Below are positions 15,326 to 62,566 of a DNA stretch of 64,000 bases, piece by piece; positions within the stretch are counted from its first letter, which is position 1; every line of letters starts with the position of its first letter. The notes below the pieces were generated by a model. It did not search any database. It was not told the origin of the DNA and saw nothing but the letters and a program-made list of their open reading frames with translations. Made by a program: the position numbers and the translations under genes. The stretch is taken from contig JANQLN010000050.1 of assembly GCA_028280575.1 (NCBI GenBank), forward strand, positions 14,136 to 78,135. The letters run 5' to 3'. The stretch is from Clostridia bacterium. Lineage in GTDB: Bacteria; Bacillota; Clostridia; Acetivibrionales; STF1-152.

Positions 15326-15456
15326 CAGGCATAAGTTTTCGCAGAATAAAAAATGGGTAAGTTAAACAATAGTAAAATTGACAAACACAGATTGCGGTGC
15401 TATAGTGATATGAAAATCGGTTTCGTTATAATATTATTCGTTTTGGGAGCTTTTTC

Positions 15457-16920: not shown

Positions 16921-16946
16921 TAAGTTTTAATTGAGCGGAGGTTTGT

Positions 16947-18257: not shown

Positions 18258-18393
18258 AAGATAAGGGATCATTGCAAATTTTAGAAAAAAGCATAATTTT
18301 TTTAAATGAGACACAAAATGCATATTGATAGGAATGGTGCTTATGGAAAACCGCCTTTTGAGTGATATTGGAAGGACAGGCACAAAGGTTATT

Positions 18394-46161: not shown

Positions 46162-46216
46162 GACCGGTGTATTAGATAGTTGTCCCTGGTAAAAACATAT
46201 TCGGGAGGATGATTTG

Positions 46217-47734
46217 ATGAATGGGAAAAGTTTGTTGTCATTGTATTTGGAAAAGCAGGGAAAAGATAATATTGATTCTTCCGCTGCTTCATTTTACGCT
46301 TCTTGCGACCATATTAATTCTGTTTCACCGCTTGTTGCAAAGGCAATTATAAAAGAGCTGTTTGACCAGAAAGAGAATTTGAAGTTAATTGCCAGCGAGA
46401 ACTTTTGCTCACTTGCCGTACAGATGGCACAGGGCAATCTTTTTACGGACAAATATGCGGAAGGATATGCCGAGCACAGGTTTTATGCAGGATGTGAAAA
46501 TGTGGATGATGTTGAAAAGGAAGCGTCCAGGCTTGCATGCAAGCTATTTGGAGCAGAGTATGCATATGTGCAGCCCCACTCAGGGTCTGATGCGAACCTT
46601 CTGGCTTATTTAATGGCGTTATCCCATAAAATTCAAAGGCCTTTTATGGAGGGGATAAGCATTGATAACCCCTCAAATATGCAGGATAATGACTGGGAAG
46701 AGCTGAGAAAAGCTTTTTTCAGACAAAAGCTCTTTGCCCTTGATTACTATTCAGGAGGGCATTTGACCCATGGATACAGGCATAATTTTTCCAGTATGCT
46801 TTTCGATGTGCACAGTTATACAGTTAACCGTGATACTTATCTTATAAACCTGGATGATTTAAGAAAGCAAATACATGAAATAAAACCGCTGATATTTTTA
46901 GCCGGGTACAGTTCATACCCTCGAAAAATTAATTTTGCCAAGATGAGGGAAATTGCAGATGAAGTTGGAGCAGTATTCATGGTGGACATGTCACACTTTG
47001 CAGGTTTGGTTGCAGGAAAAGTATTTACAGGGGATTACAATCCCATACCATATGCTCATATTGTTACGACAACAACTCATAAGACACTCAGAGGACCCAG
47101 AGGGGGCGTTGTAATGTGCAAGAATGATTTTGCACAATGGGCGGATAAAGGCTGCCCCATAATACAGGGAGGACCGCTGCCACATGTAATTGCAGCGAAA
47201 GCAGTCGCATTTAAAGAAGCACTTGCTCCCGAATTTTCTGAATATGCTCATAAAATAGTTAATAATTCAGTTATGCTTGCAGAGCATTGTATGAATGAAT
47301 CATTGGATGTGGTTACAGGGGGAACAGATAACCATTTGCTGCTTGTTGATGTTGCAAAAAGCTTTGGCATTACCGGCAGGCAGGCCGAATCTGCCCTCAG
47401 GGATTGTGGAATTACACTGAACCGTAATGTGCTGCCTTTTGATAAAAATGGTCCCTGGTATACAAGCGGATTGAGACTTGGCACTCCTGCAGTAACAACT
47501 TTGGGTATGGGAAGTGAAGAAATGAAGGAAATTGCAAAAACTATAAAGCTTGTATTGCAAAAAACTTCTCCTAAAACTTTAAAATCAGGCAAAAAGAGCC
47601 TTGCTAAATATACTGTTCCTGAGAAAATAGTCAAAGAGGCACATCAATGTGTTGGCAATTTACTGAAAAAATATCCTTTGTATCCCAACCTGGATATTGA
47701 AATAATCAGGGAAAGCGGAATTACAAGGAGCTGA
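46217..47734 (+). CDS. glyA: Serine hydroxymethyltransferase, unusually long form
   Basis: Motifs LIASENFCS, NKYAEGY-like DKYAEGYAEHRFYAGCE, VQPHSGSDAN, TTTTHKTLRGPRGG (PLP Lys). It is about 505 aa versus about 415 typical. I place the start at ATG 46217 (GGGAGG 8 nt upstream). Confidence 0.9.
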   Translation: MNGKSLLSLYLEKQGKDNIDSSAASFYASCDHINSVSPLVAKAIIKELFDQKENLKLIASENFCSLAVQMAQGNLFTDKYAEGYAEHRFYAGCENVDDVEKEASRLACKLFGAEYAYVQPHSGSDANLLAYLMALSHKIQRPFMEGISIDNPSNMQDNDWEELRKAFFRQKLFALDYYSGGHLTHGYRHNFSSMLFDVHSYTVNRDTYLINLDDLRKQIHEIKPLIFLAGYSSYPRKINFAKMREIADEVGAVFMVDMSHFAGLVAGKVFTGDYNPIPYAHIVTTTTHKTLRGPRGGVVMCKNDFAQWADKGCPIIQGGPLPHVIAAKAVAFKEALAPEFSEYAHKIVNNSVMLAEHCMNESLDVVTGGTDNHLLLVDVAKSFGITGRQAESALRDCGITLNRNVLPFDKNGPWYTSGLRLGTPAVTTLGMGSEEMKEIAKTIKLVLQKTSPKTLKSGKKSLAKYTVPEKIVKEAHQCVGNLLKKYPLYPNLDIEIIRESGITRS

Positions 47735-47869: not shown

Positions 47870-48499
47870 ATGAAGAATAGAAAAGTGAGAGATTCTCAAA
47901 AATCAAGGGAAGACATATTGCTTGCGGCAGAGCAGGAATTTGCTGAAAAAGGAATATATGGAGCACGCATTGATGAAATTGCAGCAAAGGCCAATATAAA
48001 CAAGAGGATGATATATGAGTATTTCGGGAACAAGGAAGAGCTGTACAAGATTGTTCTTGCCAATGTATACAGCCGTTTGAGCCGGAAGGAGATCGATGTA
48101 TTGTCAGAGGATGCTTCATGTGTTGAGATCATTAAAAAAGTGATCAGCTTGTATTTTGATTATTTGAGCCATAATCCTTCATATGTCAATTTGATACTTT
48201 GGGAGAACCTGAATAAGGGCATGTATATCAAGGACATGGATTTTACACATATAAAAACACCTGAGCTTGACCTTTTGAGAAAAGTTATTGAAAGAGGCAA
48301 GGAAGAGGGCATTTTCAAGCCGGATGTTGACACCGAACAGGTTGTATTGTCTCTTTTGACATATAGTTTTTCATATTTTTCAAACAGGTATACACTGTCC
48401 AAGCTTTTGGGAAAAAAGCTGGATAATGAAGAAAATATCAAAAAAAGGATAAAGAATGTTACAGAGATGTTTTTGGAATATTTGTGTATAAAGCCATAA
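47870..48499 (+). CDS. TetR/AcrR-family transcriptional regulator
   Basis: 209 aa. N-terminal HTH SREDILLAAEQEFAEKGIYGARIDEIAAKANINKRMIYEYFGNKEELY. Confidence 0.9.
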   Translation: MKNRKVRDSQKSREDILLAAEQEFAEKGIYGARIDEIAAKANINKRMIYEYFGNKEELYKIVLANVYSRLSRKEIDVLSEDASCVEIIKKVISLYFDYLSHNPSYVNLILWENLNKGMYIKDMDFTHIKTPELDLLRKVIERGKEEGIFKPDVDTEQVVLSLLTYSFSYFSNRYTLSKLLGKKLDNEENIKKRIKNVTEMFLEYLCIKP

Positions 48500-48542
48500 A
48501 AGATAAAGGCTTTATACAAAAATGAATAAGTATATATTTTGC

Positions 48543-48572
48543 CATATAAATAACTAACTGGTTATTTATATG
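48543..48572. promoter_or_regulatory. Palindromic operator O2 in front of the creatininase-family gene
   Basis: CATATAAATAAC-taactg-GTTATTTATATG has perfect 12-bp arms and the same core and 6-nt spacer as O1. It ends at the RBS GAAGAGGTG of the next gene. Confidence 0.65.
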
Positions 48573-48587
48573 AAGAGGTGATTATTT

Positions 48588-49298
48588 ATGCTTGATTATT
48601 ATTCAACTGCAGACGAGATTCAAGATTCCGGTATTGATACAGCTCTGCTGCCTGTAGGCTCAGTAGAACAGCATGGACCGCATCTTCCAATAGCTACTGA
48701 TTTGATGATAGCCTCTGCTGTTGGGAAAAAGGTGTCAGAAAGACTGAATGTGCTTTTGCTTCCAACCCTGCCTGTCAGTACATGCAGGGAGCACATGGGC
48801 AAAAAGGGAAGTGTGTGGATTAATCCCGACACATTTTATTACATGATCCGGGATATTGTTTTGAGCCTTAAGGAGCAGGGATTTAAAAGGGTAATTCTTC
48901 TTATTGCCCATGGTGGCATATTCATAGCCAATCCTGCTGTCAGGGAGCTCAACGCTACAAATAATGATATAAAAGTTATAAAGGTTGACCTGGTTGGGTT
49001 CATGGGATCAAAAGAAATGGCTGTGATACTGGATTGTGAGGATAATCTTCATGCAGGTGAGCTTGAAACTTCAATTATCCTTTACCTTGACAAAGAGCTT
49101 GTAAAGAAGAAAAAAAATGTGGATTCAATACCCGGGGTACCCAGGGATTATCTCAATTATGGATCAATATTCAAATACAGTGAGAATGGAGTATGGGGAA
49201 AGCCCAGCCTTGCAAGCTGTGAAAAGGGAGAAAAAATATTCGGATTGCTTGTTGATATGAGTATAAATTATGTAAAAAAAATAAATGAGCTGATATGA
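48588..49298 (+). CDS. Creatininase-family (creatinine amidohydrolase/ArfB/MftE-type) metal-dependent amidohydrolase
   Basis: 236 aa. Motifs LLPVGSVEQHGPHLPIATD, LIAHGG, HAGELETS. Confidence 0.8.
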   Translation: MLDYYSTADEIQDSGIDTALLPVGSVEQHGPHLPIATDLMIASAVGKKVSERLNVLLLPTLPVSTCREHMGKKGSVWINPDTFYYMIRDIVLSLKEQGFKRVILLIAHGGIFIANPAVRELNATNNDIKVIKVDLVGFMGSKEMAVILDCEDNLHAGELETSIILYLDKELVKKKKNVDSIPGVPRDYLNYGSIFKYSENGVWGKPSLASCEKGEKIFGLLVDMSINYVKKINELI

Positions 49299-49429
49299 AG
49301 CAGTGTGATTTTTGTTATGGTAGTGAGTTGAGGCAGTTTTAGAAAAGCTGCGAAAATGATTATAACTGTAAACTGGATTAGCATTTATAATCTTAGCTCA
49401 TGGTTAAAAAAACGGAGGGGTGTTTTAAA

Positions 49430-50503
49430 TTGAGTGGAAAAGTAAAGGTTTTACTTGTGGGGGCAGCTTTTAGTGCAGACCTTCATATGGAAGGCTATGC
49501 AAGGTGCAGGGACATTGCACAGATTGTGGCCATTTGTGACAAGGATGTATCAAGGATAAAGGAACTGGCTGAAAGATTCGGAGTTGAAAACTACAAGGCA
49601 TATGACAATTATGATGATGCAATTGATGAGGTTGAATGTGATTTAGTGGATATATGTCTTCCAAACTTTCTTCATCATGATGTTGCCCTTAAGGCGTTTA
49701 AAAAGGGCAGGCATGTTATTTCAGAAAAGCCTCTTGCCACTACTGCTGAAGATGCCTGGGAAATGGTTGATGCGGCAGTAAAGGCCGGTAGGAAGCTCTT
49801 TTATGCAGAAGATTGGCTGTTTGCGCCGGCACTTGGCAAGGCATTGGAAATTGTAGAGGAAGGAGCAATAGGAAAACCAATGTATATAAGGGCAAGGGAG
49901 TGCCACAACGGTTCCCATTCACCATTCACTCAGACAATCAAGTATTGCGGAGGAGGTTGTATGGTTCATCTGGGAATTCATCCGGTCGGCTTTATGCTTG
50001 CCCTTAAAAACAACAGGTGGACCGAATTGGTTGCAATGACATCAGGCGGCTCTGAAAACAACTATATACACAAAAAAATGGAAGGGGAAGACTGGGCCGC
50101 TTGCATTATCAAGTTTGAGGACGGTACGTCCGCACTTCTTGAGTCAAACTATATTACAGTTGGCGGCATGGAGGACGTAATAGACATTTACGGGACAGAT
50201 GGATGCATGCATATTGACCTGACATTCTCATCAGCAATCAAATGCTTCTCTACTCCAGGGCTTAAATATACTGTGGAAAAGGCAGATATGACAAAAGGGT
50301 GGTCCCGGCCCGCAGTAGATGAGAAATTCAATCTTGGATATGTTGGTGAGATAAGACACTTCATGGAATGCTGCCTTGAAAACAGGGATGCAAAGACAGG
50401 ACTCAGGGGGATAGACGGCCTTGAAGCACTCAAGGTTATAAACCTGATATACAAGTCGGCAAAAGAAGGCAGGAAAATTGTTAATGAAGCAATAAGCGTT
50501 TAA
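49430..50503 (+). CDS. Gfo/Idh/MocA-family NAD(P)-dependent oxidoreductase
   Basis: Motifs VKVLLVGAAFSADLH, ICLPNFLHH, VISEKPLA. I place the start at TTG 49430 (GGAGGGG 9 nt upstream); the track ATG 49400 lacks an RBS. Confidence 0.8.
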   Translation: MSGKVKVLLVGAAFSADLHMEGYARCRDIAQIVAICDKDVSRIKELAERFGVENYKAYDNYDDAIDEVECDLVDICLPNFLHHDVALKAFKKGRHVISEKPLATTAEDAWEMVDAAVKAGRKLFYAEDWLFAPALGKALEIVEEGAIGKPMYIRARECHNGSHSPFTQTIKYCGGGCMVHLGIHPVGFMLALKNNRWTELVAMTSGGSENNYIHKKMEGEDWAACIIKFEDGTSALLESNYITVGGMEDVIDIYGTDGCMHIDLTFSSAIKCFSTPGLKYTVEKADMTKGWSRPAVDEKFNLGYVGEIRHFMECCLENRDAKTGLRGIDGLEALKVINLIYKSAKEGRKIVNEAISV

Positions 50504-50526
50504 TTCTCTTAAGAATGGAGGTCAAT

Positions 50527-53178
50527 ATGGGAAAAGATTTATATTTGCCTGTGGATATCGCAGGTATAACATTCAAAAATCCGTTTTATGTCGCTTCAGG
50601 ACCTACTACAAAATCGGTAAAGCAGCTTGTAAGAATTGAACAGACCGGATGGGCGGCAGCCAGTATAAAGCTTACAATTGATCCTGCACCATATATTAAC
50701 AGGGTTCCAAGGTATGCCATATTCAAAGACCGGGATGCCCTTTGCTTTACTGCTGAAAAAAGACTTACGTTTGAAGAGGGCTTAAGGCTTGTGGAGGATG
50801 CAAAAAAGGAGCTCTGTGAACTGATCCTTATGGCCAATATCACATATGCGGGGGATAAAGGGGCCCAAGGATGGGTCAATATGGCAAAGAAGTTTGAAGA
50901 GGCCGGTGCGGATATTATTGAGCTTAACATGTGCTGTCCCAATATGTCATATAATGTTGAGCTGTCAAGCTGCAATGATAAAGCCTGTAATGTACGCACA
51001 GGTGCAAGCCTTGGACAGCAGGGCGATGTTGTTGCAGGGATTGTGCGTGAAATAAAAAAAGTGATTGGGATTCCATTGTTTGTTAAACTCACCCCGGAAG
51101 GGGGAAAGATTGCACAGGTTGCAAAATCCCTTTATGAAGCAGGTGCGGATGCAGTAGGCGGAACATCAAACCGTCTGGGAATTCCTCCAATTGATCTTGA
51201 TAATCCCGCCAGGGCGGTTTACCACTTGCAGGATGAAATCAGCATGTCCTGCCATTCAGGTGCCTGGCTCAAACCTCTTGCTTTGAGGGATACGTATGAG
51301 ATGAGAAAGGTAAGCGGACCGGAAATGAGAATCATGCAGGCGGGAGGGGTACGAAACTACAGGGATGCAGTTGAGATGGTCATGTCAGGTGCCGATCTGA
51401 TAGGAATATGCGCAGAAACCCTGATAAGCGGCTATGGATTCATAGAAGAGCTGATTTCAGATATGAAGGATTATATGGATGAGCATGGATACGGGTCCCT
51501 GGTGGAAATGAGAGATTTGATTGTTCCTGAAGTTAAAAGTGCTCCGGACCTGACACTCTATGAAGGACATGCAAGGATATCAAAGCCTGAGCTTGCAGCT
51601 CCCTGTAAAGCAGCATGTCCCCATAACGTACCTGCCCAGGCATATGTGCAAAAGGTTGCAAAAGGCAGGTTCAGGCAGGCCTATGATTTGATAATGGGCA
51701 AAAATCCGCTCCAGTCGGTTTGCGGATGGGTATGCAGCCATCCATGCGAAGAAGAGTGTACAAGAGGTGTAGCAGGTATACCGGTCAGGATCAGGGAAAT
51801 CAAAAGATTTGTGATTGAATATGGCAAAAAATCAGGGTGGAAGCCAAAAGTACCTGTAAAGGAAAAAAGAAACCAGAAGGTTGCAGTGATCGGTTCAGGT
51901 CCTGCCGGACTGTCCTGTGCATATAATCTTGCCGTATCCGGATATGAGGTTACGGTGTTTGAAAAGGAAGATTATATCGGGGGTATGCTGCGCTATGGCC
52001 TTCCCAGGTTCAGGATGTGCCACAGTGTTCTTGACGATGAAATTGGCATGCTGAAATCAATGGGAATCCGGTTTGAAACAGGCAAGGCATTGGGCAGGCA
52101 TGTAAATATTGATAAGCTTAAGTCTGACGGTTATGCTTCCATATTCCTTGGGACAGGTGCACAGAAAGGTTATGAACTGGGCATTGAGGGGGAACATGCA
52201 GATGGTGTTGTATCGGCAATAGATTTTCTTAAAAGTTTTTACGACGGGAAAAGGATAAATGTGGGTAAAAGAGCTGTAGTCATAGGAGGAGGCTTCACTG
52301 CCGTTGATGCAGCCAGGACTGTTAAAAGACTGGGAGCAGATGAAGTATTTATTGCTTACAGGCGCACAAAGGATGAAATGCCTGCATCACAGGATGAAGT
52401 AAGAGAGGCTGAAGAAGAAGGTATCAAGGTCATGTACCTAGTTTCACCCAGGTCAATAAAAACAAAAAATGAAAAGGTTACCGGCATTACGATGGTAAAT
52501 CAGGTATTGGGTGAAAGAGATTCCTCCAACAGGCGCAGACCTGAAGAAATAGAAGCTGCTGAATTCACCCTGCCCTGTGACATTGTTATTGCTGCAACAG
52601 GCCAGATGCCTGATCCCATTGGTATCCGGGAGGTTGCAGCCAATAGGAAGGGGATGGTGATTGCCGACCGGACGACAGGAGCTACGAATATTAAAGGAGT
52701 ATATGCGGGAGGGGATGTCACCAATGTCCAGACTGTAATAGCTGCTGTCGCAGCAGGTAAAAAATGTGCCTGCTCCATTGACAAGCTTTTGTCAGGTGAT
52801 GATGCGGTATTGGAATACCAGGAGGAACTGCCGGCAGTATCCCCGGAGGGAGTGTTGAGAAGAGCCGGATATTTCAAGGACAATGACGGAATTGATTTAT
52901 ACACAATGGATGGCAAGGAAAGATTGGAAAATTTCTCAACCTATATAAGGACAATGACAGAGGACGAAGCGGTAAATGAGGCAAAGAGATGCCTTAACTG
53001 TGGCTGTGGAGAGGGATGCGGATTGTGTGCAGACATATGCAGTGAGTTTGCCATTCATTTGGACTCGCCGGATAAATGGAGAGTTGACAGCGAGGAATGT
53101 GTAGCATGTGGTATGTGTTATAATAGATGTCCCAATCAAAATATTGATATGGTTGACAAGGGCATAGTTGTTAAATAA
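50527..53178 (+). CDS. Three-module flavo-iron-sulfur oxidoreductase: DHOD/DPD-like FMN TIM barrel + GltD/PreT-like FAD/NAD(P)H module + 2x[4Fe-4S] ferredoxin tail
   Basis: N-terminal module: ITFKNPFYVASGP, IELNMCCPNM, LFVKLTP. Middle module: CKAACPHNVP...CGWVCSHPCEEECTRG, VAVIGSGPAGLSCAYNL, AVVIGGGFTAVDAAR, YAGGDV. C-terminal tail: CLNCGCGEGCGLCADIC ... CVACGMCYNRCP. I place the start at ATG 50527 (GGAGG 5 nt upstream). Confidence 0.8.
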   Translation: MGKDLYLPVDIAGITFKNPFYVASGPTTKSVKQLVRIEQTGWAAASIKLTIDPAPYINRVPRYAIFKDRDALCFTAEKRLTFEEGLRLVEDAKKELCELILMANITYAGDKGAQGWVNMAKKFEEAGADIIELNMCCPNMSYNVELSSCNDKACNVRTGASLGQQGDVVAGIVREIKKVIGIPLFVKLTPEGGKIAQVAKSLYEAGADAVGGTSNRLGIPPIDLDNPARAVYHLQDEISMSCHSGAWLKPLALRDTYEMRKVSGPEMRIMQAGGVRNYRDAVEMVMSGADLIGICAETLISGYGFIEELISDMKDYMDEHGYGSLVEMRDLIVPEVKSAPDLTLYEGHARISKPELAAPCKAACPHNVPAQAYVQKVAKGRFRQAYDLIMGKNPLQSVCGWVCSHPCEEECTRGVAGIPVRIREIKRFVIEYGKKSGWKPKVPVKEKRNQKVAVIGSGPAGLSCAYNLAVSGYEVTVFEKEDYIGGMLRYGLPRFRMCHSVLDDEIGMLKSMGIRFETGKALGRHVNIDKLKSDGYASIFLGTGAQKGYELGIEGEHADGVVSAIDFLKSFYDGKRINVGKRAVVIGGGFTAVDAARTVKRLGADEVFIAYRRTKDEMPASQDEVREAEEEGIKVMYLVSPRSIKTKNEKVTGITMVNQVLGERDSSNRRRPEEIEAAEFTLPCDIVIAATGQMPDPIGIREVAANRKGMVIADRTTGATNIKGVYAGGDVTNVQTVIAAVAAGKKCACSIDKLLSGDDAVLEYQEELPAVSPEGVLRRAGYFKDNDGIDLYTMDGKERLENFSTYIRTMTEDEAVNEAKRCLNCGCGEGCGLCADICSEFAIHLDSPDKWRVDSEECVACGMCYNRCPNQNIDMVDKGIVVK

Positions 53179-53245
53179 TTGTATAGCAATGTCCATCAAT
53201 GAAGAATGATGAATCATTAATGATAAGGAAAAATGGGGGGATTGG

Positions 53246-54178
53246 ATGAAGATATTGATTACGCCCAGGTCTTTTTCCAGGTCTAAGGAATTGGCCTTGG
53301 AGATACTAAAGGACTATGATTTGGACATTATTGAAAATACTACCGGAAAAACATTTGATGAAGAGCAAATGAACAGCCTCTGCAGTGATGTTGACGGAGT
53401 TATTGTTGGAATTGATCCTATGACTGAAAGGGTATTGGGAAATGCCAAAAACCTGAAAGCCATTTCAAAATATGGTGCAGGTCTTGACAATATTGACATT
53501 GACACTGCAAACAAGCTTGGGATAAAAGTAGAAAGGGCTGTAGGTACCAATGCCGTTTCTGTTGCCGAGCTTGCAATAGGTTTGTTTTTTGAGCTGTCCA
53601 GAAAAATATCTGCCTCGGCTGCAAGTGTCAAAAATGGTGGATGGGACAGATTCATCGGATGTGAATTGACCGGTAAGACTGCAGGAATAATAGGCTTGGG
53701 TGCAATTGGCAGAAAAGCTGCTTCCATGGCAGCAGGGATAGGGATGAAAGTTATCGCATATGATCCATATTTCAAGGATGACAGTTTTCTCAAAGAATAT
53801 GACATTCAAATGAAGCCACTGGATAAAGTCCTTAGACAGGGAGACTATATTTCCCTGCATGTGCCGGTGACAGAGGAAACAAGCAATATGATAAACAGGG
53901 AGACGCTGAAGGTAATGAAAAAAACGGCATTTCTCATAAATACTTCAAGAGGGGGACTGGCAGATGAAGATATGCTGTATCAAGCCCTTGCAGATGGTGA
54001 GATTGCAGGTGCTGCCCAGGATGTATTTTCCAAGGAACCTCCGGGAGAACATAAGCTGCTGGGACTTCAAAACTTTATATTGACACCGCATATTGGTGCC
54101 TATACAAAAGAAGCCAACCAGAGAATGGTAGTGCAGTCAACAAAAAACCTGGTAAATATGTTATTTGGAGATGAGTAA
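53246..54178 (+). CDS. D-isomer-specific 2-hydroxyacid dehydrogenase (phosphoglycerate-dehydrogenase-like)
   Basis: 310 aa. Motifs GIIGLGAIGRKAASMAAGIGMKV, NTSRGGL, AAQDVF, TPHIGA. Confidence 0.85.
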   Translation: MKILITPRSFSRSKELALEILKDYDLDIIENTTGKTFDEEQMNSLCSDVDGVIVGIDPMTERVLGNAKNLKAISKYGAGLDNIDIDTANKLGIKVERAVGTNAVSVAELAIGLFFELSRKISASAASVKNGGWDRFIGCELTGKTAGIIGLGAIGRKAASMAAGIGMKVIAYDPYFKDDSFLKEYDIQMKPLDKVLRQGDYISLHVPVTEETSNMINRETLKVMKKTAFLINTSRGGLADEDMLYQALADGEIAGAAQDVFSKEPPGEHKLLGLQNFILTPHIGAYTKEANQRMVVQSTKNLVNMLFGDE

Positions 54179-54191
54179 AGGAGGCATTTTT

Positions 54192-55010
54192 ATGAAAGTG
54201 AATTTTGACATTGCAGGAAAAACTGCAGCAATTATGGGTGGAGCCGGTGTATTGTGCAGCGAAATGGCAAAGCAGCTTGCCAAAAAAGGTGTAAAGGTAG
54301 CTGTTTTGGATTTGATTGGAGATAAGGCAGAGGAAGCTGCCGATGAAATAAACAAAGCAGGCGGGAAAGCAATAGGCGTTGAGAGCAATGTGCTTGACAA
54401 GGACAGTCTTATTCTTGCAAGAGACATTGTGTTGAAAGAGTTTGGAGCAATTGATATTTTAATAAATGGTGCAGGTGGAAACAAGAAGGAGGGTACAACC
54501 GGACCTGACATGAGTTTCTTTGACATACCTCTGGATGCCCTGCAGTGGGTATTCAATTTGAATTTTATGGGTACTGTCCTTGCCACCCAGGTTTTCAGTG
54601 AAGTAATGGTAAAAAGGGGCAAGGGAAATGTCATTAATGTATCATCAATGGCAGCTATTTCACCTCTTACCAGAACCATAAGCTATTCGGCGGCAAAGGC
54701 AGCTGTAAGCAACTTCACCCAGTGGATGGCAGTTCATTTCAATCAGAATTATTCAAAGGATATACGGGTTAATGCCATAGCACCGGGATTTTTACTGACT
54801 GAGCAGAACATGTACCTGCTGACCGATAAAGAGACAGGAGAAAGTACACCAAGGGGAAAATCCATTATTGACAATACACCGATGGGAAGATATGGGAGGC
54901 CTGATGAGCTTGTTGGAGCGATTATATGGCTGTCTTCAGATGCATCATCATTTGTCAATGGCGCTGTAATACCTATAGATGGGGGCTTTTCCGCATTTTC
55001 GGGAGTATAA
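54192..55010 (+). CDS. SDR-family oxidoreductase (mannonate/fructuronate-reductase-like subgroup)
   Basis: Motifs KTAAIMGGAGVLCSEMA, NGAGGN, NVSSMAA, YSAAKAAV. I place the start at ATG 54192 (AAGGAGG 7 nt upstream). Confidence 0.85.
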   Translation: MKVNFDIAGKTAAIMGGAGVLCSEMAKQLAKKGVKVAVLDLIGDKAEEAADEINKAGGKAIGVESNVLDKDSLILARDIVLKEFGAIDILINGAGGNKKEGTTGPDMSFFDIPLDALQWVFNLNFMGTVLATQVFSEVMVKRGKGNVINVSSMAAISPLTRTISYSAAKAAVSNFTQWMAVHFNQNYSKDIRVNAIAPGFLLTEQNMYLLTDKETGESTPRGKSIIDNTPMGRYGRPDELVGAIIWLSSDASSFVNGAVIPIDGGFSAFSGV

Positions 55011-55017
55011 GGGGGGC

Positions 55018-56526
55018 ATGGCTTTGAATAGTTTGTTTATGGGAGTGGATATTGGTACATCTTCAGTCAAAGCAGCTTTGTTTGATAGGGAAGGAAAACA
55101 GGTAAGCCTTTACCATAAAGAGTACCCGCTTATCTGTAATGAAGACGGAATGGCTGAAATTGATCCTGATAAAATCCTGGGTTCTCTTTTGGAGGTTATT
55201 AAAACATGCTTGGAAAAGGCAGGTGTAAATAAAAATAACATAGAAGCCATGGCATTCAGTACCCAGCTGTTCAGCCTGATGGGTGTGGACAGAAATGGAA
55301 ATCCTGTCACCAATCTCTATGTATGGGCAGATAGCCGTTCCATCAATGAATCCAGGGAAATTCAAAAAAACCATGATGTATATGATTTGTACTGCAGGAC
55401 GGGATGCAGGCCGCACCATCCCATGTACCCTTTAAGCAAGGTATTGTGGCTCAAAAACAACTATAAGCACCTGTATGAAAATATTGACAAGCTTGTCTCT
55501 ATAAAGGAGTATGTGATTTACAGGCTTTTTGGCGAATTTGCAATTGATATTACCGATGCTTCAACAACCGGCTTTTTCAATATACATGAGTTTAAATGGG
55601 ATGAAGACATATTAAAAGATGTACTTGGAATGGGAAAAGATAAGTTAGGCAGTCCTGTAGATTGTACACAGGTTTTCAATGGAATGAAAAGTGGATACGC
55701 AAAGGCAATGGGATTGAGAGAGGATATTACAGTGGCAATAGGTTCTGGAGACGGCATGCTTGCAAATCTTGGCTGCGGTGTATTTGATGATACTTCAATG
55801 TCTTTTACAATAGGAACAAGCGGAGCCCTTAGGATTTCCCTGAATAAACCCCTTTTGGACAGGGAACAGAGGACATGGTGCTATTGTTTTACAAGAGATA
55901 CATGGGTTGCAGGAGGAGCAGTGAACAATGGAGGCATAGTCTTAAAGTGGCTTAGAGATTCCCTGAGGGAACAATTTGAACATGATGCCAGGAATGAAGG
56001 GCTTGACAATATATACAAGCTTTTTGACAAATATGCCTCGCAAATAGGGCCTGGCTGTGAAAATCTGATTTTTCTTCCCCATTTGACCGGAGAAAGGTCA
56101 CCGGGATGGAATGCAGAAGCCAGGGCTACAATACACGGCCTGGGTCTTGTCCATGGAAAAAAGCATATAATAAGAGCCGCCATGGAAGGTGTAATGTACA
56201 AGATGTATTCAATTTATGAGGTTATTACCCAGATAAATGACAATGTAGAGGTAATAGTTGCAAATGGCGGATATGTGAATTCAGACCTCTGGGTCCAAAT
56301 ACAGGCAGATATTTTCAACAGGAAAATAGCTGTAGCCGGAGTTGGCGAGGCTGCAGCATTTGGTGCAGCTTATGCTGCAATGGTTGCTGCCGGAGCACTT
56401 GACGGATTTAAAGAGAAACTGCCTGGAATGAATCCTTCAAAAATTGTTGAGCCCATACCTGATAACCATATTGAATATAGGAAAGTGTATAATAATTTTA
56501 TTGAGCTGTATAAAAGCCTGTATTGA
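55018..56526 (+). CDS. FGGY-family carbohydrate kinase (gluconate/xylulose kinase-like)
   Basis: Motifs FMGVDIGTSSVKAALFD, FSTQLFSLMGVD, GSGDGMLANLG, ANGGYVNSDLW. The start is probably ATG 55018. Confidence 0.85.
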   Translation: MALNSLFMGVDIGTSSVKAALFDREGKQVSLYHKEYPLICNEDGMAEIDPDKILGSLLEVIKTCLEKAGVNKNNIEAMAFSTQLFSLMGVDRNGNPVTNLYVWADSRSINESREIQKNHDVYDLYCRTGCRPHHPMYPLSKVLWLKNNYKHLYENIDKLVSIKEYVIYRLFGEFAIDITDASTTGFFNIHEFKWDEDILKDVLGMGKDKLGSPVDCTQVFNGMKSGYAKAMGLREDITVAIGSGDGMLANLGCGVFDDTSMSFTIGTSGALRISLNKPLLDREQRTWCYCFTRDTWVAGGAVNNGGIVLKWLRDSLREQFEHDARNEGLDNIYKLFDKYASQIGPGCENLIFLPHLTGERSPGWNAEARATIHGLGLVHGKKHIIRAAMEGVMYKMYSIYEVITQINDNVEVIVANGGYVNSDLWVQIQADIFNRKIAVAGVGEAAAFGAAYAAMVAAGALDGFKEKLPGMNPSKIVEPIPDNHIEYRKVYNNFIELYKSLY

Positions 56527-56739: not shown

Positions 56740-58377
56740 CTATCGGATTGTGCCTGTTCCATCAACCCAGTCAGAGCCATTCCACCATATAGGATATCCC
56801 AATGATGTATCTAAATAGAACTCATACAAATAAGGAGAAGACGGCCTGTTTGCGGTTGCCCCGCCATTCTGTTTATATCGTATAATTTCATAATTCGTCA
56901 GGCTTTTAACATCAAATTCATTTTTTGCCTTTTGTATAATATTACCGACAAGCTGCACGTCACTGCCATATGCAGCGTATATACCATTTGAACTTGGAGA
57001 TGTTGAATCCAGATATATAATATTTCTTCCTATTGTTATATCATTAATATTAGATGTTGCATATATACCATGCATTACAACAGGCCCTGAAGTTGTATTA
57101 GTAATGTTATTTGCTATGGCACTTACATTAGTAGATTTATAAATATATATTCCACCCACATTACCATTATAATATTTACTGCTCCGTACAATATTTGAAA
57201 GAATATCAATTTTTGAACTCCATTCAACGTTTATAAAAGTGTCCGTCAATATATTATCCGATATCAAAATGCCTTGGCCTGACTCTACATAAATGCCGTT
57301 CCGGTTTGAGCTCTCAATATTGCAGCCTTTTATTGTAATATCTTTAGGATTAGTAGTACCCCACCACAAAACTTCAATCCCCATGTTATCCCCAGTTTTT
57401 ACAGTACAGTTTTCAATATTTACTGATTCACTGCCTTGTATCATGAGTCCTGCATATGCTGCATCAGTTACTATGAACTGGCAATTGGATACATTGACGT
57501 TTTCAGCGTTGCGGGAAATTTTCATCCCGCCTTGAGAACAGTCTCTAACTATACAATTCTCTACATTTACATTTTTAGTATCATATCCTATGTAAAGACC
57601 CAGTGCTGAAGTGGGAAGTACACTATTAGGAAACATATTTTGTACTATTATATTAGAAAGCAGTACATTTTCACATTCGTGTGATACTGCAACACCCTTT
57701 ACACAGCTATCTCTAACCCTGATATTATCAATAATTACATTTTTAGAGTACCTGAAATGTATTACAGCTTCTTTACCCCATTTATTGGCATCATCACATT
57801 TTATATTCAGTGCTTTTCCATTTTCTACTCCCATGCCAAATATATTATAGCTGCCCAGACCTTTAAAGTTACAGTTAATGACATTAAAGTTTTTAATCGT
57901 GCTTATTAATTCAAATGGAATATTTTCAGTAAACTCTCCTCTGCCATAGATACCTATGGCATTTGCTGAAGGGGAGCTTTCAAATGTACCATTTTCTACT
58001 GTAAAATCATCTGCATGTACATAAAAGATAGCTCCTACTGATGAAAAAGTATTTATGGTAGGTATGGTTGTATTCACAACAATCTTGGCATTTTTTGCAA
58101 ATATTATCTTTATACCAGGCTTAGTTATTTGAACTTCAGAATCCCATAAGTATGTTCCATCTGGAAAGTATATAGTTTCATTTCCTGAGATATTATCAAT
58201 AATTGTCTGAAAAGATGTAGAATCTGCTGTTATGCCATCACCTGCCAATCCCCAATCCTTAACGGAAATCATGTCCATATCAGTAGTATGTGCAAATACA
58301 TATACGGGAATTGCTGAAAAAAGTATAGCGAAAACTATTAATTTAATAACTGTATAGCGAATTATTATTTTTAGCAC
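56740..58377 (-). CDS. Secreted right-handed parallel beta-helix protein (pectate-lyase-superfamily / polysaccharide depolymerase-like), paralog 1
   Basis: 545 aa. GTG start with AAGGGGTGA. Signal peptide. N-terminal ISVKDWGLAGDGITADSTSFQ..IYFPDGTYL (the pectate_lyase_3-type opening). It has many I/V-x-N repeats and the C-terminal RPSSPYLYEFYLDTSLGYPIWWNGSDWVDGTG. Confidence 0.7.
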   Translation of the reverse strand: MLKIIIRYTVIKLIVFAILFSAIPVYVFAHTTDMDMISVKDWGLAGDGITADSTSFQTIIDNISGNETIYFPDGTYLWDSEVQITKPGIKIIFAKNAKIVVNTTIPTINTFSSVGAIFYVHADDFTVENGTFESSPSANAIGIYGRGEFTENIPFELISTIKNFNVINCNFKGLGSYNIFGMGVENGKALNIKCDDANKWGKEAVIHFRYSKNVIIDNIRVRDSCVKGVAVSHECENVLLSNIIVQNMFPNSVLPTSALGLYIGYDTKNVNVENCIVRDCSQGGMKISRNAENVNVSNCQFIVTDAAYAGLMIQGSESVNIENCTVKTGDNMGIEVLWWGTTNPKDITIKGCNIESSNRNGIYVESGQGILISDNILTDTFINVEWSSKIDILSNIVRSSKYYNGNVGGIYIYKSTNVSAIANNITNTTSGPVVMHGIYATSNINDITIGRNIIYLDSTSPSSNGIYAAYGSDVQLVGNIIQKAKNEFDVKSLTNYEIIRYKQNGGATANRPSSPYLYEFYLDTSLGYPIWWNGSDWVDGTGTIR

Positions 58378-58421: not shown

Positions 58422-60071
58422 TTAATGGCTTGTGCCGGATGAATCTATCCAGTTTGACCCATCCCACCATAACGGATATCCTAACGTTGCATCAAAATAG
58501 CATTCGTACAAATATGGAGATGAAGGTCTTGATTGAGAATTTCCTCCAAAAATTTTAATCCTTATAATTTCACAATTAGTTACACTGTTTGTTCCAAAAT
58601 CATTTAGAGCATCAACTATATTGTTAACAACTTTTATATCATCTCCGTATGAAATAAAAATTCCATTAGTGCCTGCAGTTGTAGAATCAAGTGATATATT
58701 ATTATTGCCTATTAAAATATTACTAAGACTTGATGTTGCATATATACCATGATACCATGTACCACCGTTATTTGTATTAGAAATATTATTTGACATGGCG
58801 TTTACTGCAGTAGACTTATAAATATATATTCCTCCAATATTAGAATCATAATATTCACTGCTCCGTATTGTATTTGAAATAATATTTACATGAGAACTCC
58901 AATGGATTCTAATGTATGTATTTTTCATACTGTTACCAATTATATCAACATTTTTTGCACCTAGAGCATATATCCCATAGCTGTTCGCGCTTTTTACAAT
59001 GTTTCCCTCTATTTTTATATTTTCTACGTCATAGCCACCATCCCAGTCGGCTATATAAATACCTCTTGCTGTAATTGTATTAACAATACTGTTATTCAAG
59101 TTAACATTTTTACAACCCATAAGTATAACTGCACTATCTGTACTACTATTACTTTCAAGGTTCTCAAAGTAACAGTTTTCAATATTTATGTCTTTACTGT
59201 TTCTTGATACTCTTAATGCTGCTTCATCATTCATAGTACTTATGTAATTACTGATATTAACATGGTTGCAATTATATCCGATGTCAATTCCCAATCCGGT
59301 GCCAGCACCAACTGTGTGCTCTGACAAATTATTGATAATAATGTTTTTTAGTAAAACATTATTACTGTAAAATGCTGCAATGCCTTTATAATAACTATCG
59401 CTGATCCTTATGTTATTTACTATTGCATTGTCAGCATTCTTACAGTATATTATACCTTCTGCTCCATCAATATTAGCATTGCTAAAATCAACATTTTGTA
59501 TAGTAATATCATTTACATAGTCAGCATAAATGTTACTATTCTTTATTCCATCAAAGCTACTGTTTAAAATCTTTATGTTTGAAAGGCGGTCATTCAACTG
59601 GCCAAGTATGTATAAAGCTTTAGATGTGGTTGCACTTCCCTCAAATTTTGCGTTTTCAATGGTTATATCATCATCAGTAATTTTAAAGATAGAATTAATT
59701 GAAGTGTTATTAACAATTTTTGCGTTTTTTTCAAACACTATCCTAACTCCAGAAACTGTTATTTCTACTTCTGATCCCCATAGATATGTTCCGTCGGGGA
59801 AGTAAATTGACTCACCGGTTGAAAGACCACTGAGCAAAGTTCGAAATGCGCTGGAATCATCAGTAAATCCATCACCAATCAAACCATGGTCTTTTACTGA
59901 TATCATATCCATACTTGTCGATTGATTTGCACCTTCTACGGTTTGAATATTTACTTCCATGGTCAGTAAAAACATACAAACTGCAAATACCACAATTAAT
60001 AAAGCTGTTTGTCCAAAAAATTTTTTTACCACAAAAACCACTTCCTTCCTAATATTAATATTTATCTTCAT
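58422..60071 (-). CDS. Secreted right-handed parallel beta-helix protein, paralog 2
   Basis: 549 aa and collinear with paralog 1 (ISVKDHGLIGDGFTDDSSAF..IYFPDGTYL ... RPSSPYLYECYFDATLGYPLWWDGSNWIDSSG). An alternative start at GTG 60032 (AGGAAGGAAG 8 nt upstream) gives a cleaner signal peptide (MVKKFFGQTALLIVVFAV). Confidence 0.7.
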   Translation of the reverse strand: MKININIRKEVVFVVKKFFGQTALLIVVFAVCMFLLTMEVNIQTVEGANQSTSMDMISVKDHGLIGDGFTDDSSAFRTLLSGLSTGESIYFPDGTYLWGSEVEITVSGVRIVFEKNAKIVNNTSINSIFKITDDDITIENAKFEGSATTSKALYILGQLNDRLSNIKILNSSFDGIKNSNIYADYVNDITIQNVDFSNANIDGAEGIIYCKNADNAIVNNIRISDSYYKGIAAFYSNNVLLKNIIINNLSEHTVGAGTGLGIDIGYNCNHVNISNYISTMNDEAALRVSRNSKDINIENCYFENLESNSSTDSAVILMGCKNVNLNNSIVNTITARGIYIADWDGGYDVENIKIEGNIVKSANSYGIYALGAKNVDIIGNSMKNTYIRIHWSSHVNIISNTIRSSEYYDSNIGGIYIYKSTAVNAMSNNISNTNNGGTWYHGIYATSSLSNILIGNNNISLDSTTAGTNGIFISYGDDIKVVNNIVDALNDFGTNSVTNCEIIRIKIFGGNSQSRPSSPYLYECYFDATLGYPLWWDGSNWIDSSGTSH

Positions 60072-60265: not shown

Positions 60266-61441
60266 CTATTTCAACATCCTGTTCAAAAGACTAGTACATA
60301 AAATAAAAGCCCTTGGAACATGGAAAGGCCCTTTCCAAAGTGAACCTTTTATTGGTGAGGAAAGTGAACCATCCCTGTGAAGGTATCCGTACCATTCACC
60401 AAATTCCTTGTCCGGAAAATGTCTGAATGTCCAGTCATGCATCTTCTCATACCACTGCTCATACTTCCCATCTTCAGTCAGGTTATAAGCAAGCAGCAGA
60501 GCATACAGCGCCTCAGTATGCGGCCACCAAAGCTTCATATCCCACTCAAGCTGCTCGGGGGGGTTGCCGTCCACATCAATAAAATATAAAAGTCCCCCAT
60601 ACTGTTTATCCCATCCCAGCTCAAGCGACCAGTCAAGAATTAGTAAAGCTTTTTTTATTATAGCCTTATCTCCTCGTCTCATTCCCTCCTCCATAAGAAA
60701 CCAGGAAGTTTCTATGGCATGTCCGGGATTTACACATCTTCCCTCAGGCAAGTCAATAAATTCACCATTAACCCCAACATTTTCAAGTAAAGCCTTCTTT
60801 TCAGTATTAACAAAATCACTGAACAATTCATTGATAAGCATATTAATTACATCATCATATACCGGACTGTCATCCACTTCACGCAAACCCTGGCTTGTAG
60901 CTATCAGAATCATAGGCATTGAGTGAGATTTCATGCTGCGTGTCTCTGTATACACCTTTGACGGGAGTCTGTCCGGGTTTTGATAGTAATCAATGACAAG
61001 GTTGTATGTATCCTTTGCAAATTGCAAGGCCTTTTTACTGCCTGAAGCCTTTGCATATTCGGCAAAGGCAATTATGGCAAAACATTCTGAAAAAAGGTAT
61101 CTTCTCTTCCTTAAAGGCTTACCTTCTCTTGTGACATGGAAAAAAAGCCTACCATCGTCATCAAAGCAATGCCTTGTTAAAAATTCATAACCAAGACGAG
61201 CTGCATTCAGCCACTCATCCTTTTTGCCAAATCTATTGCATAACTTAGAGTATATCCATACTCCTCTTCCCTGAAACCAAACAGATTTATCACTTGAAAG
61301 AATTGAACCCTTTCTATCAAGCCATGTAATATATCCGCCATGTTCATTATCCAGTGAATGTTTTAGCCAAAATGGTATAATATCTCTGAACAAAGTATTG
61401 CTGTATAGTTCATGAAGCTCTTTAATCCTGTTTTTATTCAT
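60266..61441 (-). CDS. N-acylglucosamine 2-epimerase (AGE) superfamily epimerase/isomerase
   Basis: 391 aa. Motifs IIPFWLKHSLDNEHGGY, VWFQGRGVW, NPGHAIETSWF, WDKQYGGLLYF, KLWWPHTEALYA, GEWYGYLHRDG. Confidence 0.8.
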   Translation of the reverse strand: MNKNRIKELHELYSNTLFRDIIPFWLKHSLDNEHGGYITWLDRKGSILSSDKSVWFQGRGVWIYSKLCNRFGKKDEWLNAARLGYEFLTRHCFDDDGRLFFHVTREGKPLRKRRYLFSECFAIIAFAEYAKASGSKKALQFAKDTYNLVIDYYQNPDRLPSKVYTETRSMKSHSMPMILIATSQGLREVDDSPVYDDVINMLINELFSDFVNTEKKALLENVGVNGEFIDLPEGRCVNPGHAIETSWFLMEEGMRRGDKAIIKKALLILDWSLELGWDKQYGGLLYFIDVDGNPPEQLEWDMKLWWPHTEALYALLLAYNLTEDGKYEQWYEKMHDWTFRHFPDKEFGEWYGYLHRDGSLSSPIKGSLWKGPFHVPRAFILCTSLLNRMLK

Positions 61442-61502
61442 TATACCTCACCTCCATTTTCATTTTTTATCAAAAACCAATCTTAGCAATTTATCTTATT
61501 CT

Positions 61503-62498: not shown

Positions 62499-62566
62499 AA
62501 TTAATACACCTTTCCTAAACAAATATAAATAAAATATATTGATATATAATAATTATACAAGATAAT

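Follow-up and report, generated by a model that had tools for sequence, protein, structure and literature searches.

A 64,000-nucleotide stretch of the genome of a Clostridia bacterium (GenBank assembly GCA_028280575.1, contig JANQLN010000050.1, positions 14,136 to 78,135 of the forward strand; hereafter the window) encodes an 883-amino-acid protein in which a flavin barrel of the dihydroorotate dehydrogenase (DHOD) and dihydropyrimidine dehydrogenase (DPD) type is followed by an FAD- and NAD(P)H-binding module and a ferredoxin tail. This fusion protein is probably an intact single-chain iron-sulfur (Fe-S) flavoenzyme working together with a Gfo/Idh/MocA dehydrogenase in a sugar-type pathway, and not a nucleobase reductase. 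More tentatively, the two enzymes may belong to an anaerobic pathway that spreads horizontally, has not been described before and acts on a ring compound of carbohydrate origin; in it, an enzyme of the DHOD/DPD fold would oxidise or reduce C=C bonds of a sugar ring. Candidates for this compound are a cyclitol, an unsaturated uronate, and an amino sugar or hexosaminuronic acid from glycans of the cell wall or capsule. Known reactions of the DHOD/DPD superfamily centre on nucleobases. To our knowledge, and in the literature searched, its characterised members act on pyrimidines, a purine and fumarate, and none on carbohydrate-derived rings.

Reading frame and homologues

An open reading frame (ORF) scan of the window placed the gene on the plus strand at 50515-53178, with 887 amino acids counted from the first ATG. 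The true start is likely the ATG at 50527, giving 883 amino acids, since it is preceded by GGAGG 5 nt upstream and since homologues begin with MxKD.YLPV, matching the Met at this position in the alignment. The first-pass annotation of this DNA, made by a model from the letters alone, had given the coordinates 50527-53178, which fit the 883-residue form, while its length of 887 residues belongs to the longer ORF from 50515. In what follows, Pfam coordinates refer to the 887-residue form, and motif and residue numbers to the 883-residue form.

A search of a database of 5.8 billion proteins returned one entry 100% identical to the fusion protein (P0001) and more than 110 full-length, collinear homologues of 865-899 amino acids with 62-80% identity, originating from NCBI, JGI, ENA and Logan assemblies and named in the database as 'FAD-dependent oxidoreductase' at most. 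Two family alignments, one of 18 members and one of 58 full-length members, were both collinear with the fusion protein. The junction between the barrel and the GltD-like part (about 51540-51600, amino acids 338-358), which had been proposed as the place to look for a frameshift, is in frame, and A339, T343, G347, P359 and C360, at or near it, are invariant in the 58 full-length homologues. An assembly or sequencing artefact joining a PreA-like gene to a GltD-like gene could be imagined, as stand-alone barrel-ferredoxin proteins do exist, but its probability is negligible. It was rejected because the homologues are collinear and the linker is conserved; moreover, proteins of 865-899 amino acids were recovered independently from assemblies of all four sources and in 72 genome loci, and the ribosome-binding site and start codon agree with the homologues.

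Domain architecture

The features of the fusion gene are as follows.

50527-53178 (+): fusion protein, 883 amino acids, stop codon included; the upstream ATG at 50515 gives the 887-residue alternative
50545-51477 (+): class-1 DHOD/DPD-type FMN barrel (Pfam DHO_dh, residues 11-321, 86.7 bits), aligned to residues 533-835 of pig DPD
50920-50946 (+): active-site loop ELNMCCPNM, amino acids 132-140, followed by a 12-residue insertion
51598-51837 (+): Fer4_20-type Fe-S region (Pfam Fer4_20, residues 362-441, 72.9 bits) with the invariant C360, C364, C399, C403, C407 and C411
51877-52758 (+): GltD/NfnB-type FAD and NAD(P)H dinucleotide-binding module (Pfam Pyr_redox_2, residues 455-748, 104.7 bits), assigned from Pfam, NCBIfam and structure matches
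51892-51909 (+): dinucleotide-binding motif GSGPAG, amino acids 456-461
52285-52308 (+): dinucleotide-binding motif GGGFTAVD, amino acids 587-594
52357-52365 (+): conserved YRR after the second dinucleotide motif
52990-53151 (+): C-terminal Cys-rich tail, a 2x[4Fe-4S] ferredoxin with C827/C831/C834/C838 and C858/C861/C864/C868 (Pfam Fer4 dicluster, residues 834-879, weak and under the gathering score)

The FMN barrel thus occupies amino acids 1-340 and the GltD-like part 355-760, ahead of the C-terminal dicluster ferredoxin. Pfam and the motif positions bear out the order read by the first-pass annotation, namely a barrel, a GltD/PreT-like module with an N-terminal Cys cluster, and a ferredoxin pair, together with its two dinucleotide motifs. 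Both Cys sets of the ferredoxin pair are likewise present, although the Pfam dicluster match is weak. The barrel is the most conserved portion of the protein, with dense invariant columns.

Sixteen Cys residues are invariant in the 58 sequences. Six of them form the Fer4_20 set listed above, six lie in the tail motif RC822xxC825xC827xxxC831xxC834xxxC838, and four in C858xxC861xxC864xxxC868P. Judged from sequence, they would suffice for four [4Fe-4S] clusters, as in DPD. The Fer4_20 match begins at profile position 30, the first ~30 positions being absent at that place, and the usual opener of this domain, 'RCLxC', is found after the NAD(P)H domain. RC822LNC825 is probably this displaced start of the Fer4_20 motif; in YgfK and in the large subunits of NfnABC and Stn, 'RCLxC' is likewise placed after the NAD(P)H domain.

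The predicted structure of the protein has a mean pLDDT (predicted local distance difference test) of 82.5; for amino acids 360-760 most block means exceed 90. For amino acids 355-830 the best sequence matches are the NfnABC/StnABC large subunits (E ~1e-104 to 1e-94), followed by NfnB, DPD and GltD; overall, the NAD(P)H module and the start of the tail match these proteins with E values from 1e-104 to 1e-61, and predicted-fold matches for the module fall on the same proteins over 420-600 columns. The likeness to NfnB, the NfnABC/StnABC large subunits and GltD includes the RCLxCG segment after the NAD(P)H domain; these proteins, however, have no DHOD barrel and pair with NfnA, formate-dehydrogenase-like or GltB modules instead of an FMN barrel. 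The NCBIfam model PRK12771 scored 471.9 bits against a cut-off of 516 and represents a relative at the level of the module, with Fer4_20, Pyr_redox_2 and the two dinucleotide motifs present. The conserved YRR suggests NADPH, as in GltD-type modules.

DPD of pig and human, and E. coli PreT-PreA, contain the same modules, that is, a DHOD-fold FMN barrel with a catalytic Cys, Fer4_20, an FAD/NAD(P)H part and a C-terminal 2x[4Fe-4S] ferredoxin, and a long Fe-S wire of similar kind probably links the two flavins in DPD and in the fusion protein. The arrangement differs: in DPD the GltD-like part comes first, whereas the fusion protein starts with the barrel and has the NAD(P)H module between it and the ferredoxin tail. 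In E. coli PreT and PreA are separate subunits, while the fusion protein is a single chain. Both contrasts had been drawn by the first-pass annotation and are correct.

Active site

In pig DPD the active-site loop reads ELNLSCPHG, and alignment pairs C137 of the fusion protein with the catalytic Cys671, and C136 with Ser670. The first-pass annotation had noted the adjacent Cys residues as CC in place of SC, and the pig sequence bears this out. The FMN lysines K48 and K187 correspond to K574 and K709 of pig DPD, and N134 and N215 to N668 and N736. Of the pyrimidine-binding set of pig DPD (Asn609, Asn668, Asn736 and Thr737), only the equivalents of Asn668 and Asn736 are kept; in the fusion family an invariant ...PRY...FTAEKR stands in for the Asn609 segment and the invariant R216 for Thr737, and 12 extra residues lengthen the stretch after CCPNM relative to pig DPD. 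R59, R62, K78, R79 and R216 are invariant in the family alignments, and R69 is nearly so. N139 corresponds to the Asn found after the catalytic Cys of DHOD A (CPN), where DPD has a His.

The pattern [ED]xNxCCPNM is present in 118 of 120 fused homologues (in 114 of them as ELNMCCPNM proper) and in 118 of 119 stand-alone homologues. More distant PreA-like proteins carry S, I, V, N, T, G or A at the first Cys position and keep the second Cys; C136 is an extra Cys specific to the family. The vicinal pair C136-C137 (50932-50937) is near-invariant in fused and stand-alone forms alike; candidate roles include a proton relay, a vicinal disulfide and a persulfide, and the pair may give the enzyme a catalytic feature absent from DPD and DHOD.

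Three family-specific loops, at 50686-50754, 50938-50988 and 51172-51255 (amino acids 54-76, 138-154 and 216-243), combine low pLDDT with some of the most invariant sequence of the family. They probably form a substrate lid or pocket that has no template-like precedent.

Stand-alone relatives and distribution

The barrel alone was searched against 1.84 billion representative sequences, and the matches fell into three tiers. The first, with at least 42% identity, consists of long barrel-first proteins and of proteins of 400-445 amino acids; the second consists of PreA-like proteins of ~400 amino acids with 27-37% identity; the third is made up of proteins of DPD order, of which only three occur among the top 150 matches. 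The proteins of 400-445 amino acids (P0130, P0133, P0135, P0138 and more than 100 others) are stand-alone forms, comprising the barrel and a 2x[4Fe-4S] tail, and share the ELNMCCPNM, FTAEKR and GNRLG motifs. The tail of P0130 is near-identical to that of the fusion protein (CGAGCGICADIC...CSACGICSYRCPNGNI) and lacks RCLNC. An ELNMCCPNM-type barrel subfamily is defined here by this loop together with the PRY...FTAEKR and GNRLG motifs, all of which the fusion protein carries.

Because stand-alone barrel-ferredoxin forms have the same motifs, and because the P0130 tail is so similar, the architecture reads best, on comparison of these sequences, as a PreA-like unit of barrel and ferredoxin tail into which an NfnB/GltD-like NAD(P)H-FAD module would have been inserted. 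The first-pass description of a permuted DPD was therefore right in that the order differs from DPD, but the protein is better described as a PreA-type unit with an NfnB/GltD-type insertion.

Nor is the architecture unusual, as had been supposed. A scan with one genome per species, for relatives carrying the family motifs, found them encoded in 386 species-level genomes of at least six phyla, and the order of modules is also that of E. coli YgfK. Carriers belong to Clostridia, Bacteroidales, Planctomycetota, Victivallales, Actinomycetota and Anaerolineae; they include Oscillospiraceae, Christensenellaceae, Prolixibacteraceae and two cultured strains of Ruminiclostridium cellobioparum, and bacteria of gut, rumen, digester and sediment are among them. 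The copies from Bacteroidia (loci L013, L014 and L045) are 71-73% identical to the Clostridia-like copy of the window, and the G+C content of the operon at 47870-56526 is 41-46%, compared with 38% for the window and 35% for its ArgS gene. These two observations suggest horizontal spread of the cluster.

Operon and conserved gene neighbourhood

The fusion gene is part of a tightly spaced, same-strand gene set at 47870-56526, whose other members are listed below.

47870-48499 (+): TetR-family regulator (TetR_N and TetR_C_29 in Pfam), first gene of the cluster
48588-49298 (+): creatininase-family metal amidohydrolase by Pfam and NCBIfam, the 'hydrolase slot'
49400-50503 (+): sugar-type dehydrogenase of the Gfo/Idh/MocA family, NAD(P)-dependent, the constant partner, with 23 nt between its end and the fusion gene
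53246-54178 (+): D-isomer-specific 2-hydroxyacid dehydrogenase (2-Hacid_dh) by Pfam and NCBIfam, the '2-keto-acid reductase slot'
54165-55010 (+): short-chain dehydrogenase/reductase (SDR), passing the NCBIfam model PRK08277 'D-mannonate oxidoreductase' with 366 bits against a cut-off of 281
54979-56526 (+): FGGY-family kinase, the 'kinase slot', nearest to gluconokinase with 442 bits, under the cut-off of 648

A scan of the operon for promoters and terminators gave results no better than shuffled sequence.

All ORFs from the 72 loci carrying the fusion gene were clustered, and the families encoded within 8 kb of it were counted.

Gfo/Idh/MocA: 58 of 72 loci, with 59 of the 60 genes sharing the strand of the fusion gene, and directly upstream of the fusion gene in most listed loci
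SDR: 34 of 72 loci
Creatininase family: 28 of 72 loci
2-Hacid_dh: 21 of 72 loci
NagB-like PF01182: 20 of 72 loci
TetR: 18 of 72 loci
Ldh_2: 16 of 72 loci
Amidohydro_3: 11 of 72 loci
FGGY: 11 of 72 loci
2-Keto-3-deoxy-6-phosphogluconate (KDPG) aldolase, passing TIGR01182: 10 of 72 loci
PfkB resembling 2-keto-3-deoxygluconate (KDG) kinase: 9 of 72 loci

The accessory genes form interchangeable, mutually exclusive sets. In these loci the creatininase, Amidohydro_3 and ornithine carbamoyltransferase (OTC)-like genes never occur together, 2-Hacid_dh and Ldh_2 overlap in a single locus, and FGGY and PfkB are never found in the same one; the KDPG aldolase accompanies PfkB in 5 of 9 loci and FGGY in 3 of 11. 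A polysaccharide deacetylase gene follows the fusion gene in L030 and L031. In L046 and L047 the fusion gene is followed by a long-chain Mannitol_dh-family enzyme of the UxuB/UxaB family (cluster 42), with no SDR seen there, and this exchange supports a step from fructuronate or tagaturonate to mannonate or altronate.

The stand-alone form of the barrel lies near a Gfo/Idh/MocA gene in 19 of 47 loci. Since it keeps this neighbour, the barrel and the Gfo/Idh/MocA enzyme (hereafter Gfo) are regarded as the functional core, to which the NAD(P)H module is an add-on. An adjacent Gfo gene is a mark of the ELNMCCPNM-type subfamily, and it is present in the window (49400-50503). Two cassettes recur around the stand-alone gene: one comprises the barrel, Gfo, NagB-like, ROK and creatininase genes, and the other a Bmp-type ABC transporter, AP_endonuc_2, the barrel, Gfo, 2-Hacid_dh, KDPG aldolase, PfkB and CN_hydrolase. 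Beside the second cassette, L088 and L090 encode a Bmp-family nucleoside-type ABC transporter and a xanthine-dehydrogenase-like molybdenum enzyme, the latter transcribed divergently. Another stand-alone locus (L091, 13312-14913, minus strand) encodes a 533-residue protein that joins a domain of the creatininase family to one of the GNAT acetyltransferases and by its sequence would pair an amide hydrolase with an N-acyltransferase.

Some neighbours are restricted to particular lineages. In Planctomycetota, carbamoyltransferases resembling OTC or aspartate carbamoyltransferase (ATC) are encoded beside the fusion gene (L058, 7818-8801; L067, 8728-9807); they have STRTR and the non-canonical HSTH and HSGPAH, score under the cut-off, and hint at a carbamoyl or ureido intermediate in this lineage. 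The substrate-binding proteins of transporters beside the cluster are only 'monosaccharide/polyol-like', and 'fructose-like' in one Pirellulales locus. The sugar-binding protein of the adjacent ABC transporter in L058 (14645-15592, minus strand) matches PDB 2x7x ('SENSOR PROTEIN') with 245 bits. This entry is the fructose-binding sensor domain of Bacteroides thetaiotaomicron BT1754, and the match points to a ketose-like substrate in that lineage.

Comparison with known enzymes and alternative functions

YgfK of E. coli is a single chain in which an N-terminal domain is followed by Fer4_20, Pyr_redox_2 and a dicluster tail, in the same order as in the fusion protein. YgfK (DOPOR), from E. coli and Clostridium sporogenes, was identified in two 2025 studies as an Fe-S flavoenzyme with NAD(P)H:2,8-dioxopurine reductase activity, and its N-terminal FMN site derives from structural modelling by its authors (PMC12507026; bioRxiv 10.1101/2025.04.24.650524). 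Its place in C. difficile is taken by UacX, an enzyme of DHO_dh type that lacks the FAD domain and acts on 2,8-dioxopurine (PMC12507026), and PydAc is a ferredoxin-dependent DPD variant with two ferredoxin domains that acts on uracil (PMC7332683). These enzymes parallel the family studied here, in which a barrel-plus-ferredoxin form likewise exists alongside one with its own NAD(P)H module. Thus, both a fusion beginning with the catalytic domain and a pair of fused and ferredoxin-type forms have precedents in YgfK, UacX and PydAc. The three also set a precedent, within this class of enzymes, for the reduction of rings with electrons from NAD(P)H or ferredoxin. The layout of PydAc resembles that of the stand-alone relatives, which differ from it by the ELNMCCPNM loop and their Gfo neighbours.

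A genuine DPD, reducing uracil or thymine, with PreA and PreT fused in the other order, would account for the presence of all DPD cofactor modules and for the conservation of the catalytic Cys and three substrate-site Asn residues. PreA is also the best-scoring named model for the barrel, and the barrel relatives at 27-37% identity are PreA-like proteins. Nevertheless, this function is very improbable. The barrel scores 187 bits with the NCBIfam PreA model NF006183, whose cut-off is 335; the Asn609 segment and Thr737 are replaced and the active-site loop is extended, as described above; and the operon contains no gene for dihydropyrimidinase or beta-ureidopropionase, while the conserved neighbours are of sugar type and CN_hydrolase is present in few loci only. 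A true DPD or PreTA was accordingly rejected on scores, active-site residues and gene context. Even less probable is a YgfK orthologue acting as 2,8-dioxopurine reductase in anaerobic uric-acid degradation. The identical module order, the 29-32% identity over amino acids 345-880 (hhalign probability 100%, YgfK residues 445-952) and the occurrence of a fused NAD(P)H form and a ferredoxin-type DHO_dh form in both systems (PMC12507026) would favour it. However, TIGR03315, the YgfK model, gives 320 bits where its cut-off is 835, and the match is confined to amino acids 361-882, the C-terminal two thirds. Residues 1-450 of YgfK have no Pfam hit at E<=10 and give no profile alignment to the barrel of the fusion protein, to which BLASTP finds only a weak match of the YgfK N-terminal region (E 0.016). 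The gene context differs entirely, with no ssnA, xdhD, hyuA or ygeW/X/Y-type set in the window or in the 72 fusion loci. Orthology with YgfK was rejected on the model score, the non-aligning N-terminal domain and this context.

An oxidative role is unlikely, though considerably less so than either of these. The enzyme would then be an IolM-like, DHOD-related desaturase of a keto-sugar or keto-cyclitol supplied by Gfo, passing electrons to NAD(P)+; for example, scyllo-inosose would be converted to a diketo-inositol, the creatininase-family enzyme would open the ring to 5-keto-L-gulonate (D-fructuronate), and the SDR would reduce the product. Within the DHOD fold, DHOD B is a physiological NAD+-linked oxidase. 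Thermotoga maritima reportedly has an oxidative inositol pathway with IolG, IolM, IolN and IolO, which resembles the fusion loci in its Gfo/Idh/MocA enzyme, its creatininase-family ring hydrolase and, in some loci, AP_endonuc_2, and further shares a hexuronate-type reductase, KDG kinase and KDPG aldolase; its second dehydrogenase, however, is not known to be a DHOD-fold flavoenzyme. The creatininase-family neighbour matches the NCBIfam model '3-dehydro-scyllo-inosose hydrolase IolN' with 65 bits and the Gfo gene matches IolG with 106 bits, the SDR scores above the D-mannonate oxidoreductase cut-off, genes for AP_endonuc_2 (an IolO-like fold), a KDG-kinase-like protein and KDPG aldolase accompany the stand-alone form, and CUT2-type monosaccharide/polyol-binding proteins are encoded in some loci. 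Yet the IolN and IolG similarities are weak, with scores far under the cut-offs of 245 and 355, and the creatininase-family neighbour scores higher with MftE and creatininase models. The creatininase gene is absent from many loci, which have deacetylase-type enzymes instead, and PydAc, UacX and YgfK, the known relatives, are reductases, as presumably are the stand-alone homologues of ferredoxin type. Electron bifurcation or confurcation, in which the NfnB-like module would also exchange electrons with ferredoxin, was given very little weight. It is suggested by the bifurcating NfnABC/StnABC large subunits and NfnB being the best sequence and fold matches to amino acids 355-830, and by relatives without the NAD(P)H module that presumably use ferredoxin (PMC7332683), but GltD and DPD have the same module and do not bifurcate, and the protein has one linear set of four predicted clusters, with no NfnA-like or second acceptor branch in it or in the operon.

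Enzymes of the Old Yellow Enzyme (OYE) type, such as FadH, clostridial enoate reductase, BaiCD and BilR, also combine an FMN barrel, Fe-S and an FAD/NAD(P)H part, and reduce C=C bonds beside carbonyls. Their order is analogous and their FAD domains match the fusion protein weakly; however, they have an Old Yellow Enzyme barrel and a single [4Fe-4S] cluster, whereas the fusion protein has a DHOD-fold barrel and four predicted clusters.

Proposed reaction and pathway

In the sugar-type pathway favoured here, Gfo would oxidise a hydroxyl group on a ring substrate of monosaccharide size. NAD(P)H would pass a hydride to the NfnB/GltD-type FAD site of the fusion protein, from which electrons would travel through the two clusters of the Fer4_20 region and the two C-terminal ferredoxin clusters to FMN and the substrate; as in DPD, this path may cross a homodimer. 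Two electrons would be delivered to a C=C bond conjugated with the carbonyl newly made by Gfo, with Cys137, a predicted proton donor or acceptor, supplying the proton, as in the reduction of uracil and orotate. The inserted NAD(P)H module would make a ferredoxin-type enzyme self-sufficient for pyridine nucleotides. The direction is tentatively taken to be reductive, with saturation of a C=C bond likelier than its creation, and the substrate to be an intermediate with a six-membered ring that stems from a sugar, an amino sugar or a cyclitol; the C=C bond would lie next to a carbonyl. The hydrolase of the operon would then take off an acyl group by amide hydrolysis or open the ring, 2-keto and 5-keto groups would be reduced in a step of the fructuronate/mannonate type, and the resulting sugar acid would be phosphorylated and cleaved by an aldolase.

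Candidate substrates are 3-keto-4,5-unsaturated uronates, isosteric with orotate, and 2-acetamido-2,3-unsaturated aldonolactones, isosteric with thymine; further candidates are hexosaminuronic acids, N-acetylmuramic acid (MurNAc) or muramic lactam, inositols and anhydrofructose-type enones. Each accounts for some of the neighbour genes and not for others, and taken singly each compound is quite improbable. Four routes considered on paper were set aside as unproven: conversion of an unsaturated uronate to KDG, elimination from an N-acetylglucosamine or MurNAc lactone, deamination of a hexosaminuronate to fructuronate, and reversal of MurB on a lactyl ether. In these, a C=C reductase would be dispensable, or NAD(P)+ would be unable to drive the oxidation, or conserved genes would go unexplained. 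A ureide or nucleoside substrate, hinted at by the OTC-like, CN_hydrolase, Amidohydro_3 and Bmp-type genes, was not adopted because these genes are lineage-restricted and a polysaccharide deacetylase occupies the same slot elsewhere.

Several points weigh against this interpretation. The searched literature yields no characterised member of the family, and for the unsaturated uronate, N-acetylhexosamine lactone, MurNAc and inositol routes the reductase step is dispensable or its direction uncertain. The neighbours vary by lineage, with nucleoside-type Bmp transporters, branched-chain-amino-acid-type ABC systems and a fructose-like binding protein among them, and therefore the substrate may differ among family members. 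The three most conserved active-site loops (amino acids 54-76, 138-154 and 216-243) are modelled with pLDDT below 50. The choice of NADPH as the probable nucleotide is drawn only from the YRR motif, by analogy with GltD-type modules.

The finding in 2025 that YgfK acts on 2,8-dioxopurine showed that relatives without an assigned function can hide whole anaerobic pathways. The cofactor modules and the YgfK-type order were already known; new is an uncharacterised, conserved DHO_dh-barrel family linked to genes for sugar dehydrogenase, sugar-acid and amide-hydrolase functions, and no description of this family, of this order with a DHO_dh barrel or of its gene context was found in the literature searched. 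Identification of its substrate would probably uncover a new way in which an abundant compound derived from a glycan or cyclitol is catabolised, extend the chemistry of the DHOD fold, and explain the need for a four-cluster Fe-S wire in a sugar pathway. Should the substrate prove ordinary, the family would add one more specificity within a known enzyme class.

Other genes in the window

Directly downstream of the operon, two paralogous right-handed beta-helix proteins (Beta_helix / Pect-lyase_RHGA_epim), probably secreted, are encoded on the minus strand at 56740-58377 and 58422-60071. Proteins with beta-helix, PKD or F5-8-type-C domains also flank the cluster in L005 and in the R. cellobioparum locus L028, and the beta-helix proteins may release the pathway substrate from a polymer. 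Just upstream of the TetR gene, at 46214-47734 on the plus strand, lies a gene for a serine hydroxymethyltransferase homologue of 506 amino acids, matched by Pfam in two stretches. This protein is ~90 amino acids longer than typical serine hydroxymethyltransferases, and its gene is not conserved in related loci. Further sugar and amino-sugar genes are present at 13967-19563, 30228-31439 and 60266-62522; they encode a class-III aminotransferase, a second FGGY kinase, a ceramidase-like protein, an Amidohydro_1 protein, a putative sugar-acid dehydratase of the MR_MLE enolase superfamily, an N-acylglucosamine 2-epimerase-family protein and a putative second Gfo/Idh/MocA-type protein, the last judged from the look of its sequence alone.

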